The notes beneath the pieces are model-generated. The model had not been told where the DNA came from, did no database searches, and was given only the letters and a program-made list of their open reading frames with translations. Positions 2,273 to 10,284 of a stretch of DNA of 42,026 bases are shown piece after piece. The translations under genes were made by a program, and so were the position numbers. How positions within the stretch are numbered: position 1 is the first letter of the stretch; every line of letters begins with the position of its first letter. The stretch is from a virus (lineage: Duplodnaviria > Heunggongvirae > Uroviricota > Caudoviricetes), in IMG/VR virus record IMGVR_UViG_2734482779_000005, positions 1 to 42,026 of that record; one strand, written 5' to 3'.

Positions 2273-2554
2273 TTAGTGATGTTCTTTGTCCTTCTGTTTG
2301 ACTGTTCTGACCTGTTCCCACTCGATACGTCCTTCTTCTCGCCTTTTGTCTATGTATTCCGCAAGATCTTGAATATTGATGCAACGTTTTGCTTTTTGTG
2401 ATGTGCCGATGCGATATGTTGGAACGGGCAACTTACAAGCGTTTGCTTTTGCTTCTGCCGTGGCTGGACTCATACCAAAGTACTTTTGGCTAACTGCTGA
2501 GAGTTCAATGTTTGGGGTATTGAATTCAGCCATCAGTAAAAACAAGGTGTTCAT
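2273..2554 (-). CDS. PrtN-like (pyocin-activator family) phage transcriptional regulator
   Basis: N-terminus MNTLFLLMAEF... resembles the PrtN family as I recall it; start chosen at the ATG preceded by GGAGA (track ORF extends to 2581 with a GTG). Confidence 0.45.
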   Translation of the reverse strand: MNTLFLLMAEFNTPNIELSAVSQKYFGMSPATAEAKANACKLPVPTYRIGTSQKAKRCINIQDLAEYIDKRREEGRIEWEQVRTVKQKDKEHH

Positions 2555-2590
2555 AATTTTCTCCATCAAAACCGGCTGCACCCGGGAAAA

Positions 2591-3166
2591 TCATAATTCT
2601 GTGCTGGTGGCAGGAATTAATTTCTGCCAGATAGCGGAAACATATTTTGCCTGATGACGGGCATCAGCCAGGGCGTTGTGCCGTTCGCCATCGAAAGGCA
2701 TGTCCATTTTGGGGTCGAATCCGATGGAACGCCCAAGCGTAACGATCGTGCGTACATCGTGGTCATTCCAGTACGCCCACGGGCAGATTTGTCCTGCTCG
2801 CTCGTAAGCTCCACGTAAAATTACGTTGTCGAAGGTGGCCCCGTTACCCCAGACTTTTAAATATTTTATATTGTCTGCATGCTGATTAATGAAATGACTC
2901 AATTCAGAGAGTGCATCGCTGATCGATAAAGTATCATCAATACAGATTGCAGCTCGTGCTTCAGGGCTCTGTTTCAACCACCACAGGATGGTATCGCCGT
3001 CAGGTGTAGCTCCTTGCTTCATAGCACTGTCCAGGCTGACAACCGCATAGAATTCTTGTCCGATGTCACCGGTTTCTGGGGTAAAGAACACCGCGCCAAT
3101 GGAAACGATCGGTGCATCCTTATTTTTCCCCATCGTCTCAAGGTCGATCATTAAGTTGTTCATCAC
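2591..3166 (-). CDS. DEDD-type 3'-5' exonuclease (DnaQ-like, phage)
   Basis: MIDLETMG (Exo I motif) and HNALADA (Exo III motif) in a 191-aa protein. Confidence 0.7.
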   Translation of the reverse strand: MMNNLMIDLETMGKNKDAPIVSIGAVFFTPETGDIGQEFYAVVSLDSAMKQGATPDGDTILWWLKQSPEARAAICIDDTLSISDALSELSHFINQHADNIKYLKVWGNGATFDNVILRGAYERAGQICPWAYWNDHDVRTIVTLGRSIGFDPKMDMPFDGERHNALADARHQAKYVSAIWQKLIPATSTEL

Positions 3167-4104
3167 TTCACCTCTTGTGATGGTTTTGCTGCAAAATACT
3201 CGATACCTTTATCCCAGATAGATTTTATGGTCGTCCACGTGACTGGTACTTTAATTTCAATTCGTCCGCTCCCGTCACAGGTATCGCAATCATCATCGCC
3301 AAAGCATTCCGGGCAGCTTATAAACGTAGTTTCTGAAAATTCACCGGATAGCACACCCTTAGCGCCGTTCTCAGCGGTTAGTTTCTTCGGCACTATAACC
3401 CAACCATCCGGAGTTACCGGAGAGTTGCCATTTATATCGAAGTTTGGCTCTGCGTCCTGAACCAGGAGGATGTAACCATTCTTGGCAGTATCAAGTTCTA
3501 ACGCCTCGGTGACGGTGCCGAAATAGCGATTACCTAAATCAGCATCACAAGTGCTTACATCAATGGAAACTTCCATGCCTTCGATTAATTCTGGCAAGTT
3601 GTAAGTTTGGCTTACAGGTTGGCTACCCTGAAGCATGGCAGCGTGGCAGGCTTCATCAACCATAGCTTCTACGTTTTCGAGAAGTACGTAACTGTACTGC
3701 TGCCCACTAACCCATTCTTTTCTGCGAGGTAATGCGCGTGGGTCCGCTACAATGGTTCGCAAACGTTCCAGAACAGCAGGCACTACCGGCTCTACTGCCA
3801 ACTGACTGGCATATTTGTTAATGGTAACGATAAGCTCTTGCTCGGCCTCATCCAGACAATCACCGATACCTCGCCTGTCACCGTCAAAATCATCGAAATC
3901 GGCACGAATCCTGGCAACCTCCCGGATTGCGGACAACACTTCACCAGGAATAAGCGGAGAGTTGCCCGATAGTGCATTTTGCTCCAGTGATGCCAGTGCA
4001 ATCCGTGCCAGCTCACGAATCTCACCGCCGTCTATATCGTCAATGTCATCACGGCCAGAAATGTTAGCCAGCCATTGCAGTCGCTCTTTGGTAATAGTGG
4101 TCAT
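3163..4104 (-). CDS. Hypothetical phage protein with C-terminal CxxC...CxxCxGxG zinc-ribbon
   Basis: 313-aa ORF; C-terminal CPECFGDDDCDTCDGSGRI resembles a DnaJ-type zinc finger; translationally coupled (atga overlap) to the exonuclease gene. Confidence 0.45.
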   Translation of the reverse strand: MTTITKERLQWLANISGRDDIDDIDGGEIRELARIALASLEQNALSGNSPLIPGEVLSAIREVARIRADFDDFDGDRRGIGDCLDEAEQELIVTINKYASQLAVEPVVPAVLERLRTIVADPRALPRRKEWVSGQQYSYVLLENVEAMVDEACHAAMLQGSQPVSQTYNLPELIEGMEVSIDVSTCDADLGNRYFGTVTEALELDTAKNGYILLVQDAEPNFDINGNSPVTPDGWVIVPKKLTAENGAKGVLSGEFSETTFISCPECFGDDDCDTCDGSGRIEIKVPVTWTTIKSIWDKGIEYFAAKPSQEVK

Positions 4105-5823: not shown

Positions 5824-5951
5824 TTCGTTCTCCACTTTATATGCGCTGCACCGCGCTGAATTCTGCTAAAAGGAAGCTCTCACCATCCGGTGATTATTGA
5901 GTTAATTACGTTTCCATAAATGCCCCCGCAGGGGCATTTGCAGTAATGAAA

Positions 5952-6841: not shown

Positions 6842-7204
6842 TTAACGACCTGCTGCGCGGAGTTTTCCGTCAGGTTCACCGGCAAGAGTCAGTAATTGTC
6901 CCTGGTCTTCCTGCAGAATAGTCAGGCGACCACCGCGATTGACATACATCGGCGTTTCGGTGGTGTCTTCTTCGGAAATTTTCCCGCGGTTAGTTGGGCG
7001 AACATATGAGAGTTTGTGTTTGATTTTCACACTGTTCTCATCAAACGGTTCGATTTCCAGATTGAGTGAGACCTTCCCTTTGGTTTTCGTGTTCATCACA
7101 CCGGAAGCGACCTCACTGAGAACTGCGCCGATTTTGGTTTCAAATACGCCGCCGTCCAGCTCCCCGATAAATGCCTGCACATCAGTACTGCGTTCGCTAG
7201 CCAT
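6842..7204 (-). CDS. yfdP: YfdP-like prophage protein (about 120 aa)
   Basis: Track ORF runs to 7390, but the ATG at 7204 is preceded by GAGGAG and gives the expected ~120-aa product starting MASERSTDV. Confidence 0.45.
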   Translation of the reverse strand: MASERSTDVQAFIGELDGGVFETKIGAVLSEVASGVMNTKTKGKVSLNLEIEPFDENSVKIKHKLSYVRPTNRGKISEEDTTETPMYVNRGGRLTILQEDQGQLLTLAGEPDGKLRAAGR

Positions 7205-7252
7205 TTTGCTGCTCCTCATCATATCGACCCTGCAAGGTCGGTTGGTTTCTCC

Positions 7253-7341
7253 ACAAAACAGAGAAGAACACCTGCGGTGGCAGCCGCCCGGATGGATTGG
7301 GTTATGAGCCCGTCGTCCGGTGATGTTCTTCTCTGTTTTGT
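7253..7341. repeat. Long inverted repeat (18-bp perfect arms acaaaacagagaagaaca / tgttcttctctgttttgt, 46-nt loop) in a noncoding leader
   Basis: Read directly: arms at 7253-7270 and 7324-7341, extended by cc/gg with a 3-nt bulge. Confidence 0.6.
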
Positions 7342-7852
7342 AAAAAGAGCGGTACCAGCCGGAAGCAAGTGTACAAACTGGTACCGCCAAAGCAGTGGCT
7401 GTTGTGGTGACCGGTGCTGATCTCCGGCTTGCGGTTATTTCAGACTCTCACGGGCGTTTAATTGCCCCGCCGAACAGCTCTTTTCCGCAATAGCTGCAAT
7501 GTCTTTCGCGCATCAGCCTGCGCCTTCACCACAACGCTGAGAGCACTTAGCCAGTTACGGCACCACACTTTGTCGCGGCTCCATAAATGCCCTCATCGTT
7601 GCACCCTGGTCTCTTCCCAGGCGTCAAACCGGATCGCCACGCTGGTTAGGCGTCTTATCAGCATCATCATTGGCTTGCACATTCCGGCTACCTGGTTTGT
7701 TTGCCCGAGCAAGGAGTGGATTGTCCCCTTTAACGTCCCCAGACCGCTAACGACGCATGTGCCATACGCCGTGTTACAACCAAATTTTGTTTAATCTTGC
7801 CTGTGACATGTTTCTTTTAGATACATTATGTATCTCAAGGGTACATTGTCAA

Positions 7853-7878
7853 GTATAAAAAAACCTGCCGAAGCAGGT
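7853..7878 (-). terminator. Rho-independent terminator downstream of the repressor gene
   Basis: Minus-strand hairpin acctgc-ttcg-gcaggt followed by a U-run (plus-strand aaaaaaa at 7857-7863). Confidence 0.6.
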
Positions 7879-7890
7879 TATAAATATTGA

Positions 7891-8565
7891 TTAGGCCTTT
7901 ATTTTGTATCTTCTTGGTTTTCCTGAGAAAATTACTGTACCAATTATAGAGCAATTACCGTTGATCTTAATGTAAGGTTCAGGCCAGTTTGGGTTTAATG
8001 CTTTGAGGTAACGCTGTGTTCCATCTTCTATCAACCGCTTAAAGGTGGTTTCGCCTGTATCGTGCATCAATGCAATAACGTCGTCACCGTGGCAGGCAGG
8101 GACTTCAGGATCTACAAAAATCATGTCTCCCGGGCGGTACTCATCAATCATTGAATCACCAATCACCCGCAAGATATAAGTCATTTCGCCACAGGGTACA
8201 GGGCAGGGATAAGTTTCTGCTGTGCTCAAATCAACCTCAGAATAGCCAACTTCTTTCCATGCTCCGGCCTGTACCCATGATATGACAGGGACTAACGTTA
8301 TTTGTTTGTTAGTAATTGAAACATCAGGTTTTTTTGTGATGTTTGTTGTCTGGTGTTCTTGATCAAGCCATCCGACAGGCAGGTCGAAACATTTTTCGAT
8401 GTGCCGTGCCATGCTGTCACCGATATTTTTAGTAGCACCATCTCCCATAAACCTGCTGGTCTGGGTTGGCTCGCGATCAATCATGGTGGCAAAGGAAGAA
8501 TTCCCGCCAACACCATCTCTCAGTTTTCTGGCGTTAGACCGCCGGATGTCATGGACTGTTTTCAT
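7891..8565 (-). CDS. cI: CI-like prophage repressor (HTH N-domain plus S24/LexA-like autoproteolytic C-domain)
   Basis: 224 aa; C-terminal region (…LRVIGDSMIDEY…GDMIFVDPEVPACHGDDVIAL…) has the Ser/Lys peptidase S24 architecture; divergent from a Cro-like gene across an operator-bearing intergenic region. Confidence 0.8.
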   Translation of the reverse strand: MKTVHDIRRSNARKLRDGVGGNSSFATMIDREPTQTSRFMGDGATKNIGDSMARHIEKCFDLPVGWLDQEHQTTNITKKPDVSITNKQITLVPVISWVQAGAWKEVGYSEVDLSTAETYPCPVPCGEMTYILRVIGDSMIDEYRPGDMIFVDPEVPACHGDDVIALMHDTGETTFKRLIEDGTQRYLKALNPNWPEPYIKINGNCSIIGTVIFSGKPRRYKIKA

Positions 8566-8581
8566 AACGAAATTAAAACCT

Positions 8582-8600
8582 TTGTACCGATAGGGTACAA
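8582..8600. promoter_or_regulatory. Candidate OR operator: perfect 19-bp palindrome TTGTACCGATAGGGTACAA
   Basis: Read directly in the 90-bp cI/cro divergent intergenic region; further partial palindromes (tacatattgta) lie next to the cro-like start. Confidence 0.55.
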
Positions 8601-8655
8601 GTATCTTGAGGGTTCATCTTAATCATGTAATATGTATATCGGAGGTACATATTGT

Positions 8656-8856
8656 ATGAAAGCGTATTGGGACTCTTTAACCAAAGAACAGCAGGGCGAG
8701 TTGGCCGGAAAAGTTGGCTCAACACCAGGCTACTTACGGCTGGTTTTCAATGGTTATAAAAAAGCCAGTTTTGTGCTGGCTAAAAAACTTGAGCAATGCA
8801 CGTCAGGTGCAATTACGAAATCTGACTTAAGACCGGATATCTATCCGAAAGATTAA
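8656..8856 (+). CDS. Cro/YdaS-like small HTH regulator
   Basis: 66 aa from the ATG at 8656 with GGAGG 10 nt upstream; divergent from cI; …SLTKEQQGELAGKVGSTPGYL… is HTH-like. Confidence 0.6.
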   Translation: MKAYWDSLTKEQQGELAGKVGSTPGYLRLVFNGYKKASFVLAKKLEQCTSGAITKSDLRPDIYPKD

Positions 8857-8887: not shown

Positions 8888-9451
8888 ATGAGGCTAACCG
8901 TGGGTAAGCATCACTGGAAAGTAGAAAAACAGCCTGAGTGGTACGTGAAAGCTGTCAGAAAAACTATCGCGGCGTTGCCGGGGGGTTACGCTGAAGCTGC
9001 TGAGTGGCTGGATGTAACAGAGAACGCTTTATTCAACCGCCTTCGTGCAGATGGCGATCAGATTTTCCCGCTGGGATGGGCAATGATTTTACAGCGCGCG
9101 GCTGGCACTCACTACATTGCGGATGCTGTCGCACAGTCTGCTGGTGGGGTGTTTGTATCGCTTCCTGAAATTGAGGAAGTAGAGAACGCCGATATAAACC
9201 AGCGCCTGCTGGAAGTCATCGAACAGATCGGGAGTTACTCAAAGCAGATTCGTTCGGCAATCGAAGATGGGGTAGTGGAGCCACACGAGCAGACAGCAAT
9301 TAATGATGAGTTGTATCTGTCAATTTCGAAGCTCCAGGAGCATGCAGCACTGGTCTACAAAATCTTTTGCGCTCCAGAAAAGAGTGACGCCCGCGAGTGT
9401 GCAGCTCCGGGCGTCGTGGCGTTTTGTGTCTGTGGAGAAACTAACGCATGA
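8888..9451 (+). CDS. Putative early regulatory protein (CII/YdaT-like position)
   Basis: 187-aa ORF immediately after the cro-like gene; family assignment not secure. Confidence 0.35.
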   Translation: MRLTVGKHHWKVEKQPEWYVKAVRKTIAALPGGYAEAAEWLDVTENALFNRLRADGDQIFPLGWAMILQRAAGTHYIADAVAQSAGGVFVSLPEIEEVENADINQRLLEVIEQIGSYSKQIRSAIEDGVVEPHEQTAINDELYLSISKLQEHAALVYKIFCAPEKSDARECAAPGVVAFCVCGETNA

Positions 9452-10284
9452 ACAGTTTAACGGCAAATAACCGTTTGTCGCAACAGCTGGTGGTCAGCGA
9501 CGCTGACCACCTGTTGTTACGGCATGAATGCAGATTACCAAATCACCTGGCTGTAAGTAACCACAGAGAACTTTACCTGACTGTGGGGGGCGAGTTGTGC
9601 AGGAACTTAACCGCTGGTTTCGTGACGGAAGAGGACTTTATGTTCATGTTATTCGTTGGGAGCCAGAAACACAGCGCGTTATCTATCTTCGCAAAGACTA
9701 CCCGCATGAGTGCTTTAGTCCTTTGTGGAAATTCAGGCGTGATTTTGTTGAGTGTGAAGGACCACCAGCACATTGATTCTGCCATTCCGGGACGTTACAC
9801 TGTTCAGGCACCTTATAAAGCGGGTGCCGGGATTGGCGTCCTGGAAATGTTATCGGCGATATATGACGCGCCAGCGTCTTTTTTATCGTCTGCGTCTGTG
9901 CACACCCAAATTATGGTGGGCTGGACGGGGGCACCGAAAGGTGCGCCGGTTTCCGATAACGCCGGTTACGCCAACCCCGTTCAGTTCACCACCAGCGAAA
10001 TTGGCGTTTCCGGTGGTGAAGGTAATTCACTGTTATCGGAGGCTGCCATCATGGCTACTGTCCCAGCCCTCACTCGTCTGAATGATGAAGACTTACATAA
10101 ACTCAGTTATGTAACAACTGCACTACGTGCTCTGCGCAAGGTAACTCTTTCGGATCCGCAGGCGCATCAGGTTTTGGTAGAAACCCTTCTTAACTTGCAG
10201 GCTGAACGTATTCGTCTGGCGGATAAGGCTAATTTTCATATTCACCGTCTCCTGAATATCAGCGGAGGGCATCGTCATGCTTAA
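9448..10284 (+). CDS. Hypothetical ORF (278 aa), coding status uncertain
   Basis: Longest ORF in the interval, but the N-terminal half is low-complexity and an alternative frame (GTG 9597 to tga 9776) gives a more protein-like 59-aa product; see findings. Confidence 0.25.
   Translation: MNSLTANNRLSQQLVVSDADHLLLRHECRLPNHLAVSNHRELYLTVGGELCRNLTAGFVTEEDFMFMLFVGSQKHSALSIFAKTTRMSALVLCGNSGVILLSVKDHQHIDSAIPGRYTVQAPYKAGAGIGVLEMLSAIYDAPASFLSSASVHTQIMVGWTGAPKGAPVSDNAGYANPVQFTTSEIGVSGGEGNSLLSEAAIMATVPALTRLNDEDLHKLSYVTTALRALRKVTLSDPQAHQVLVETLLNLQAERIRLADKANFHIHRLLNISGGHRHA

Follow-up and report, generated by a model that had tools for sequence, protein, structure and literature searches.

Conserved RNA modules in the early-left leader of a lambdoid prophage recur beside the tRNA genes of other phages

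The put RNA of phage HK022 binds the beta' zinc-binding domain of RNA polymerase and suppresses termination without protein factors. It is a two-stem RNA of about 70 nt that lies directly after the leftward early promoter PL, with a second copy after the rightward promoter PR (PMC9378689), and put-like control of early-left expression in other lambdoid phages that lack N has only been guessed at in the literature (PMC12315714). Here, we describe the corresponding region of a lambdoid prophage of the SfV/cdtI/mEp460 type, carried on a 42,026-nt stretch of DNA (hereafter the window; IMG/VR record IMGVR_UViG_2734482779_000005), in which 686 nt (positions 7205–7890) separate yfdP, the first early-left gene, from the repressor gene. 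The original prediction, made from the sequence alone, had taken this interval for a noncoding leader with a long inverted repeat that might act as a put-like antitermination element, a small RNA or a regulatory site. Our comparative analysis indicates that the PL transcript, which runs along the minus strand, has this interval as its untranslated leader and that the leader is modular: a promoter-proximal RNA of about 250 nt ending in a long hairpin (M1, ~7786–7529) is followed by a spacer, a predicted intrinsic terminator and a three-way-junction hairpin (M2) that contains the inverted repeat. On the strand transcribed from PL, both M1 and M2 are under selection as RNA structures, and the leader modules are portable, recurring in other phage operons beside tRNAs.

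Comparison with described leader RNAs

The leader resembles that of HK022 in that a structured RNA occupies the PL leader of a lambdoid phage without N, and in that M1, like putL, starts tens of nucleotides past the promoter. It differs in that put measures about 70 nt, is present once in each early operon and precedes the terminators that it suppresses, whereas M1 spans 180–250 nt and is also found within tRNA operons outside the lambdoid phages, and M2 forms a three-way junction. Comparison of the leader with the HK022 immunity region, which holds putL and putR, returned only chance matches of 9–10 nt (E of at least 1.4), and neither of the covariance models built here (R1 for M1, R2 for M2) found a match in HK022. 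Within the window, R1 detected no second copy of M1, which is present once, in the PL leader, and R2 detected no second M2 in the PR or late operon. A position upstream of the terminators to be suppressed is seen for M1 only; the inverted repeat stands immediately downstream of the leader terminator and therefore cannot act on it. Membership in the put family was thus rejected, for want of similarity and of a PR copy and because the inverted repeat follows the terminator, and the put-like identity offered in the original prediction does not hold.

The lambda nut sites with their N protein share the PL-leader position, and one M1 hairpin carries an invariant purine-rich loop on a covarying stem; the present leader differs in having no N-like protein and no boxA-spacer-boxB arrangement, a unit that was not found anywhere in it. 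A further comparison is with the RNase III hairpins of the lambda N leader, the T7 R1.1 type and the 16S leader-trailer helix. Escherichia coli RNase III sites are known to take the form of a stem of at least 20 bp with a conserved mismatch, and the M2 helix is likewise at least 20 bp long and near-perfect, has a conserved internal mismatch and stands shortly before the first cistron, within an untranslated leader. As in rRNA stalks, M2-type helices enclose a "cargo" RNA and have 3' arms resembling boxA and boxC. M2 departs from these hairpins in its cap, a conserved three-way junction with an invariant tRNA-like loop, and in its position after an intrinsic terminator. A further parallel is offered by tRNA-like RNAs, namely the YrlA/Y RNAs, the RNase P-cut C4 precursor of P1 and P7 and the RtT units of tyrT, in which a long stem formed by the ends also supports an apical mimic of part of a tRNA; the leader elements, too, are co-transcribed with tRNA genes and form tandem units downstream of a tRNA in the P1-like phage-plasmid RCS47. 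In contrast to these RNAs, M2 mimics the anticodon arm (CAU) rather than the T/D elbow or the acceptor end, the interval has no Rfam YrlA, C4 or RtT match, and neither an Rsr-like gene nor one for another partner protein is linked to it.

Two structured modules on the PL-transcribed strand

The arms of the inverted repeat, 7253–7270 and 7324–7341, are perfectly complementary over 18 bp, exactly where the original prediction had placed them, and the repeat extends to 25 nt at 88% complementarity (7253–7277 with 7317–7341); 300 dinucleotide shuffles of the interval yielded no perfect inverted repeat longer than 11 bp. The promoter-distal 191 nt fold with −87.1 kcal/mol (z = −7.8), a stability that none of 200 shuffles attained. 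M2 as a whole (7248..7346, minus strand; alignment A3, model R2) comprises the P1 stem (7341–7322 with 7272–7253), the P2 arm (7320–7288) with its apical GGG-CUCAUAA-CCC (loop 7308–7302), a P3 hairpin (7287–7274) whose length varies among members, and a conserved 3' flank, GGAGA (7252–7248), which places a Shine-Dalgarno-like GGAG after the stem. Across 39 sequences, each below 92% identity, 93.6% of the cells in the alignment are paired, compared with 38–52% for slid partners; both members of 13 pairs have changed, and on none of the five measures did any of 500 shuffles equal the observed value. G-U pairs occur at two stem positions (in 16 and 30 of the 39 sequences, respectively) that would read C-A on the opposite strand, and R2 scores M2 at 112 bits in the sense orientation versus 46 bits in antisense; this asymmetry singles out the transcribed strand as the one on which the structure is selected. 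The stem thus has 20 paired columns with sense-strand G-U pairs, a possible extension through the U run and a mismatch at column 16/112 that is unpaired in 33 of the 39 sequences, all in keeping with the shape of an RNase III site. The suggestion that the inverted repeat forms a structured leader RNA, for which conservation of the stem in relatives had been proposed as a check, is accordingly borne out.

Directly 5' of M2 lies a predicted intrinsic terminator (7342..7388, minus strand, from folding), in which a hairpin at 7388–7349, made of a 12–13-bp stem, GGCGGUACCAG / CUGGUACCGC, and a 19-nt loop, is followed by UCUUUUU. The stem-loop is worth −22.5 kcal/mol, and the features of an intrinsic terminator, a stable G+C-rich hairpin and a U run kept in relatives, are all present at 7388–7342. 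Among 18 leaders collected through the YfdP protein alone, an unbiased sample drawn from many genera of Enterobacteriaceae, none departs from the T run and the stems show covariation; of 140 distinct instances, 120 have a hairpin of −8 kcal/mol or lower that abuts a T run directly 5' of M2. Downstream of M2, most loci have yfdP, with a rdgC-like gene, yfdR or others in its place elsewhere, which indicates that M2 is tied to the operon leader rather than to any one gene; the terminator and M2 are thus a conserved unit before whatever gene opens the operon. Another hairpin, AAAUGCCCC-UGCG-GGGGCAUUU, follows the yfdQ stop codon between yfdQ and yfdR (~5925–5947, minus strand) and is annotated as a terminator in phage Ayreon; with a second terminator-like site inside the early-left operon, some mechanism of read-through would be called for.

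The apex of M2 is a near-invariant 16-nt sequence, GGCUCAUAACCCAAUC, and no site complementary to it occurs in the window besides the element itself. Three G-C pairs below a CAU loop characterize the anticodon arm of initiator tRNA, and in the window and most other members the P2 arm matches that of E. coli over 14 consecutive nucleotides, CGGGCUCAUAACCC (the initiator tRNA sequence was checked against all 5426 E. coli genomes). The mimicry is imperfect, since 11 of the 39 loops have a pyrimidine at the equivalent of position 37 (CUCAUUC, CUCAUUA) and one member (L032) lacks CAU. Between M2 and yfdP, a P4 hairpin, CGACC-UUGCAG-GGUCG (7240–7225), precedes the Shine-Dalgarno sequence GAGGAG (7217–7212) and the yfdP start codon (7204–7202, all minus strand), and relatives have a GC hairpin with a (U)GCAG loop in the place of P4. 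This arrangement could be that of a translational operator, in which the initiator-like arm, P4 and GGAGA control 30S binding at the first gene, the arm occupying the P site against the start codon or recruiting a standby subunit. The initiator-like pairs and loop, the GGAG conserved after the stem and the placement of M2 45–130 nt upstream of the start codon, whatever the gene, all suit such a role. The idea is, however, pure analogy; copies of M2 in P1-like phages stand in arrays far from start codons, and no conserved complementarity to the start region extends beyond CAU:AUG. We therefore consider a translational operator decidedly improbable.

M1 consists of a core (7597..7786, minus strand; alignment A4, covariation, model R1) and a terminal long hairpin, cassette A (7529..7601, minus strand; fold), which reads CAACGAUGAGGGCA ... 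UGCUCUCAGCGUUG and is followed by GGUGAAG. From IMG/VR, 93 distinct copies were retrieved through an invariant 17-mer, and divergent ones were found by BLAST. The core is built of the invariant blocks UGGCACAUG, AGCGGUC, GGUAGCCGGAAUGUGCAAG, an ACCA loop, GGCGAU and a GGAAGAG loop, joined by covarying helices. In 17 sequences of the core (7775–7597), 95.7% of the cells are paired, versus 27–36% for slid partners; nine pairs carry changes at both positions, and the observed covariation score stayed above that of every shuffle. Helices H2, H5 and H7 are well supported, H7 presenting the invariant purine loop GGAAGAG on a covarying stem. R1 scores the core at 180 bits on the minus strand and finds no plus-strand match in the window, and the G-U pairs likewise favor the minus strand. 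The stems of cassette A are compensated in phiV10-like phages and in two further loci (L213 and L180), and cassette A shares its stem and flank consensus with cassettes of P1-like phages.

Upstream of M1, a promoter scan places PL at 7825..7852 (minus strand), a sigma-70 promoter with 11 of 12 matches (−35 TTGACA at 7852–7847, a 16-nt spacer, −10 CATAAT at 7830–7825); a promoter is annotated at the homologous place in phage Ayreon. Transcription would begin near 7818, about 30 nt before the start of M1. The 17-bp palindrome pointed out in the original prediction, AGATACATTATGTATCT, sits exactly at 7819–7835, where it overlaps the −10 element. It is the junction, formed by abutting half-sites, of two adjacent 19-bp operators, OL2 (7808–7826) and OL1 (7828–7846; repeat family D1, inverted pair I2), which share a repeat family with the three OR sites (8581–8650; consensus ATGTAYC-N5-GGTACAT). 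The likeness to OR half-sites therefore stands for the palindrome, whereas the GGTACC/TGTACA motifs at 7349–7387 are the two arms of the leader terminator hairpin. They were rejected as extra operators because the same sequence occurs in mEp460, which has a different repressor, and because covarying stems replace the motifs in relatives. The right-hand 100 nt of the interval hold the repressor terminator, PL and OL, the terminator of the repressor transcript being an AACCTGC-TTCG-GCAGGTT hairpin followed by a run of seven T (7855..7879, minus strand; terminator scan and sequence). Despite its different repressor, mEp460 matches 7205–7791 at 99.3% identity and the match ends at about 7791, which marks the right-hand PL/OL block as immunity-specific. 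The repressor terminator and PL/OL block (query 606–675; window 7855–7890) is also 94% identical to Hafnia phage yong2, indicating that this immunity-linked block travels separately from the leader modules.

The genes around the interval are those of a lambdoid early region. To its left, yfdP (6842..7204; 120 amino acids, phrog_204), yfdQ and yfdR follow one another on the minus strand, and to its right lie the cI-like repressor gene of the LexA family (S24; 7891–8565, minus strand), a cro-like gene (8656–8856) and a CII-like gene (8888–9451). A weak R2 match to a hairpin just after the CII-like gene (9473–9527, plus strand; 16 bits, E of about 0.01) may be only a generic stem. Farther along the PR operon, Rfam isrK (9808–9884, plus strand; 63.7 bits) adjoins a C4 antisense RNA (9909–9996, plus strand; 82.8 bits), both inside an open reading frame (ORF; 9448–10284) of which part is called an "ash family protein" by PGAP and a transcriptional regulator by PHROGs; the pair looks like an antisense immunity module in the style of P1 and Gifsy-1, within or overlapping a called gene.

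The view that the interval holds no convincing ORF and no N-like antiterminator gene is upheld. All six of its ORFs, including 7462–7794 on the plus strand, are interrupted in homologues at 70–90% identity, either by frameshifting indels or by in-frame stops, and PGAP annotates no gene in the interval of an E. coli prophage that is 99.4% identical. In PHROG searches, the ORFs of 110, 39 and 36 amino acids were without a match, and a 49-amino-acid ORF overlying M2 (7219–7368, minus strand) matched one family without an assigned function, phrog_33599. A scan of the first 17 kb for ORFs with an arginine-rich N-terminus returned only ORFs overlapping larger genes, none of the ORFs of the interval has an N-terminal arginine-rich motif, and PHROG and Pfam recognize no antiterminator besides Q (PF06530, 15010–15390). 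There is thus no N-like gene in the interval and none recognizable in the first 17 kb. A small N-like protein hidden in the leader might be suspected from the short ORFs annotated here in the Ayreon, mEp460 and cdtI records, and from the PHROG match of the ORF over M2; the disrupted reading frames, the missing arginine-rich motif, the compensatory nature of the stem substitutions and the PGAP result weigh strongly against such a gene, which we regard as most improbable.

Mosaic origin and association with tRNA genes

BLAST against phages and plasmids divides the interval into pieces with separate histories. The piece at 7205–7389 recurs in many lambdoid phages (SfII, SfV, ST64B), 7400–7548 is 95% identical to P1-like phage-plasmids such as RCS47, 7529–7772 is 82% identical to phiV10-like podoviruses, and 7608–7785 shares 79% identity with P1 and P7. 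In these foreign settings, every piece directly adjoins tRNA genes on its own strand: in P7 it begins right after the CCA end of a tRNA with a CAU anticodon and extends to ban, in a phiV10-like phage it ends where tRNA-Arg starts, and in RCS47 it follows tRNA-Thr (the junctions are explicit in alignment A2). Among 131 loci, M1 stands upstream of M2 in about 65, directly 5' of tRNA-Arg(UCU) in 26, directly 3' of tRNA(CAU) in 27 and elsewhere in 12, and it always heads, or sits within, untranslated stretches that contain tRNAs. This mosaic make-up, the larger promoter-adjacent RNA that is M1, and the sharing of modules with the tRNA operons of P1-like and phiV10-like phages had all been overlooked in the earlier reading of the interval. 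Some part of the interval is matched by BLAST in 2836 of 5426 complete E. coli genomes. Plasmid-borne matches number 486 among these E. coli matches, with 617 PLSDB records in addition; they lie mostly on non-mobilizable replicons of 90–100 kb and are confined to the M1 or spacer pieces, as would be expected of P1-like phage-plasmids and not of conjugative plasmids.

The spacer (7392..7528, minus strand) begins with GGUGAAG and a small hairpin, GCGCAGGCUGAUGCGC (7523–7508), and continues with P1-like sequence that is 95% identical to RCS47 downstream of tRNA-Thr (BLAST, query 196–344; alignment A2) and antisense to the 3' end of the annotated plp gene. A plus-strand ORF of the window, 7395–7493, is the 3' end of that RCS47 plp reading frame. 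Ayreon and cdtI have a different sequence in this position. A Phytobacter prophage (L022) has a real tRNA in its PL leader, at 2222–2300, between a cassette-A-like stem and the terminator and M2; ARAGORN calls it a tRNA-Ile whose anticodon, AAT, is unusual, and it scores 52.8 bits with the Rfam tRNA model. In the window, the same slot is filled by the P1-like spacer only.

Such a composition might suggest that the modules are decaying remnants of tRNA arrays, either functionless or acting at the DNA level as a recombination hotspot, a mobile inverted repeat or a protein-binding site. The leader is visibly mosaic, with pieces shared with P1-like, phiV10-like, SPN1S-like and Klebsiella phages, the spacer is a fragment with an antisense plp gene end, and the cargo of some cassettes resembles pieces of tRNA. 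Against decay, compensatory changes keep the helices across genera, the G-U asymmetry and the model scores single out one strand, and the loops are invariant at 60–75% overall divergence of the flanking protein; no pattern of empty sites or target duplication is seen, and yfdP loci of the CPS-53 type diverge 19 nt upstream of the start codon. Remnants are accordingly an unlikely explanation.

R2 also finds true M2 homologues in P1-like phages (P7, RCS47), within the tRNA/ban operon. Their stems are different and compensated and their loop reads GGGUUCAUAUCCCAAUC, with the CAU and a U33-like U kept in a 7-nt loop (UUCAUAU). RCS47 carries four long-stem cassettes after tRNA-Thr (L006, NC_042128.1, ~2435–3218, minus strand), each followed by (A/G)UGAA(U/G), with a small G+C hairpin immediately behind in all but one; their cargo is one T-arm-like hairpin, one short insert and two M2 domains with CAU loops. 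The cassettes are antisense to the annotated upl and plp coding sequences, and either they or these ORF annotations need re-examination. T-arm-like hairpins in the cargo of other cassettes than M2 read GGGUUCGAAUCCC, in the RCS47 array, and CUGGUUCAAUUCCAG. Short-stem variants of M2, with a 6-bp P1 and the same GGCUCAUAACCCAAUC loop, were seen at two loci (L073, 1917–1971; L146, 12006–12060), between an intrinsic terminator and a holin gene. The second of these lies downstream of a Q-like zinc-finger gene, that is, in a late-operon leader, and its 3' strand is followed by GCCACC, which resembles the 3' end of a tRNA. The arrangement of a terminator and M2 thus occurs in early-left leaders and, at two loci, before lysis genes.

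The proximity to tRNAs invites the idea that the leader is the precursor of small RNAs acting in trans, processed M1 and the apex of M2 serving as tRNA-mimic decoys or sponges for tRNA-binding host factors, among which anticodon nucleases of defence or toxin systems, tRNA-modifying enzymes and synthetases are candidate targets. The 14-nt identity with the initiator tRNA arm, the CAU loop kept in the P1-like copies and the T-arm-like cargo of other cassettes agree with this, as do the tRNAs flanking M1, whose maturation would liberate it, and the presence of the modules in three unrelated phage types (lambdoid, P1-like and phiV10-like), as for a portable accessory function. On the other hand, ARAGORN and the Rfam tRNA model see no tRNA here, the position-37 pyrimidines and the member without CAU speak against strict mimicry, and the fixed place of M2 just before the ribosome-binding site argues for a role in cis. 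We consider a decoy function unlikely.

The comparison with known RNA families was carried out with Rfam 15 and, because the BLAST homologues adjoined tRNAs, with ARAGORN. Within 7100–8000, no family reached its gathering threshold and nothing meaningful appeared at E up to 10, the tRNA model included; the whole window gave only isrK and C4 (9808–9996), 20 related loci gave only tRNAs, and ARAGORN found 0 tRNA genes in the window. With no cloverleaf by either method, the possibility that M1 or M2 is a tRNA gene was rejected. The Rfam search proposed in the original prediction thus connects neither module to a family, and a full-text literature search returned no earlier description of yfdP leader RNAs, tRNA-mimic decoys or tRNA-like leaders in lambdoid phages; the M1 and M2 families appear, from these searches, to be undescribed.

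In the long-stem cassettes, the 3' arm has the sequence UGCUCUU(N)...GUUGUGG(U/A)G (in the window, the M2 arm is 7272–7253 and the cassette A arm 7545–7531) and recalls the boxA, UGCUCUUUAACAA, and boxC, UGUGUGGG, of the rrn leader, a string that was verified. This likeness bears on the strongest rival to the processing scheme set out below, namely processive antitermination based on RNA or Nus factors, in which M1, the boxA/boxC-like arms or both would modify RNA polymerase in place of N, making it resistant to Rho along the long untranslated leader and able to pass the leader terminator as well as those beyond. The lack of an N-like gene, set against a conserved terminator before the first gene and a terminator-like hairpin after yfdQ, would call for such a device, and M1 would suit it: it heads or sits in untranslated, tRNA-containing stretches, its H7 loop is boxB-like in style, and it starts about 30 nt past the transcription start, as putL does (PMC9378689). 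The authors of work on LLS, a related phage without N, also guessed at put-like control (PMC12315714), and mEp460, with its 99.3% identical leader, bears the prefix of the mEp collection, which was isolated as Nus-dependent (PMC11893012; mEp460 itself is not named there). Several observations run the other way. There is no similarity to put and no second M1 or M2 in the PR operon of the window, M2 comes after the terminator, and many leaders have the terminator and M2 without M1. Only the first 7 of 13 boxA positions match; the heptamer is base-paired, covaries at 3 of its 7 positions, is found in part of the family only and reads UGUUCUU in the M2 of the window. In P7, moreover, ban follows M1 directly, its start only about 100 nt away, and no terminator was noted in the gap. 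RNA-based antitermination by M1 is thus possible in our estimation, but not probable.

Possible processing of the leader and its meaning

We favor the reading, at a probability of roughly 0.4, that the leader works like that of a stable-RNA (tRNA or rRNA) operon, its long stems being predicted processing sites for RNase III or RNase P. After induction, many PL transcripts would end at 7342, yielding a noncoding RNA of about 470 nt that carries M1. RNase III would cleave read-through transcripts within the long M2 stem, or RNase P would do so at a tRNA-like junction, freeing the early mRNA from its leader and leaving a short 5' end, protected by the P4 hairpin, just upstream of the ribosome-binding site. 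Models for such a cut are provided by the lambda N leader, the early RNase III sites of T7 and the leader-trailer helix of rRNA.

Several points weigh against this stable-RNA-like processing scheme. Cutting by RNase III or RNase P is predicted from shape, and a terminator followed by a processing site could equally be a device for regulated read-through. A plain processing stem would not need the near-invariant GGCUCAUAACCCAAUC, which suggests that this sequence has a further binding or pairing partner. By minimum free energy, M1 is unremarkable (z = −1.0), so the case for this module is made by conservation and covariation; within it, helix H1 is weak, and a possible pseudoknot and helix H8 are drawn from invariant columns. 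M1 was also rejected as an obligatory partner of M2, since the many M2 leaders without M1 indicate that the two need not work together.

The invariant apical loops point to a further partner. We see a real chance, smaller than for the processing scheme, that M1 and the M2-type cassettes, distributed over lambdoid, P1-like and phiV10-like phages of Enterobacteriaceae, have a new activity, either an N-independent resistance to terminators or Rho in untranslated phage operons or the release of tRNA-arm mimics; in the latter case, the anticodon-arm mimics may disarm tRNA-directed defences or capture a tRNA-binding factor.

How lambdoid phages express their early-left genes without N is an unsolved question, and M1, the conserved terminator and M2 now give it concrete objects, with defined coordinates, alignments and covariance models. 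The shared RNA modules also tie prophage leaders to the tRNA operons of P1-like and phiV10-like phages, and the analysis flags several spurious ORF calls, including those over the leader in phage records. If the modules are only processing signals, a common unannotated "gap" in E. coli prophages would be explained; should either prove active in its own right, the result would be a new phage RNA, widespread and easy to test.

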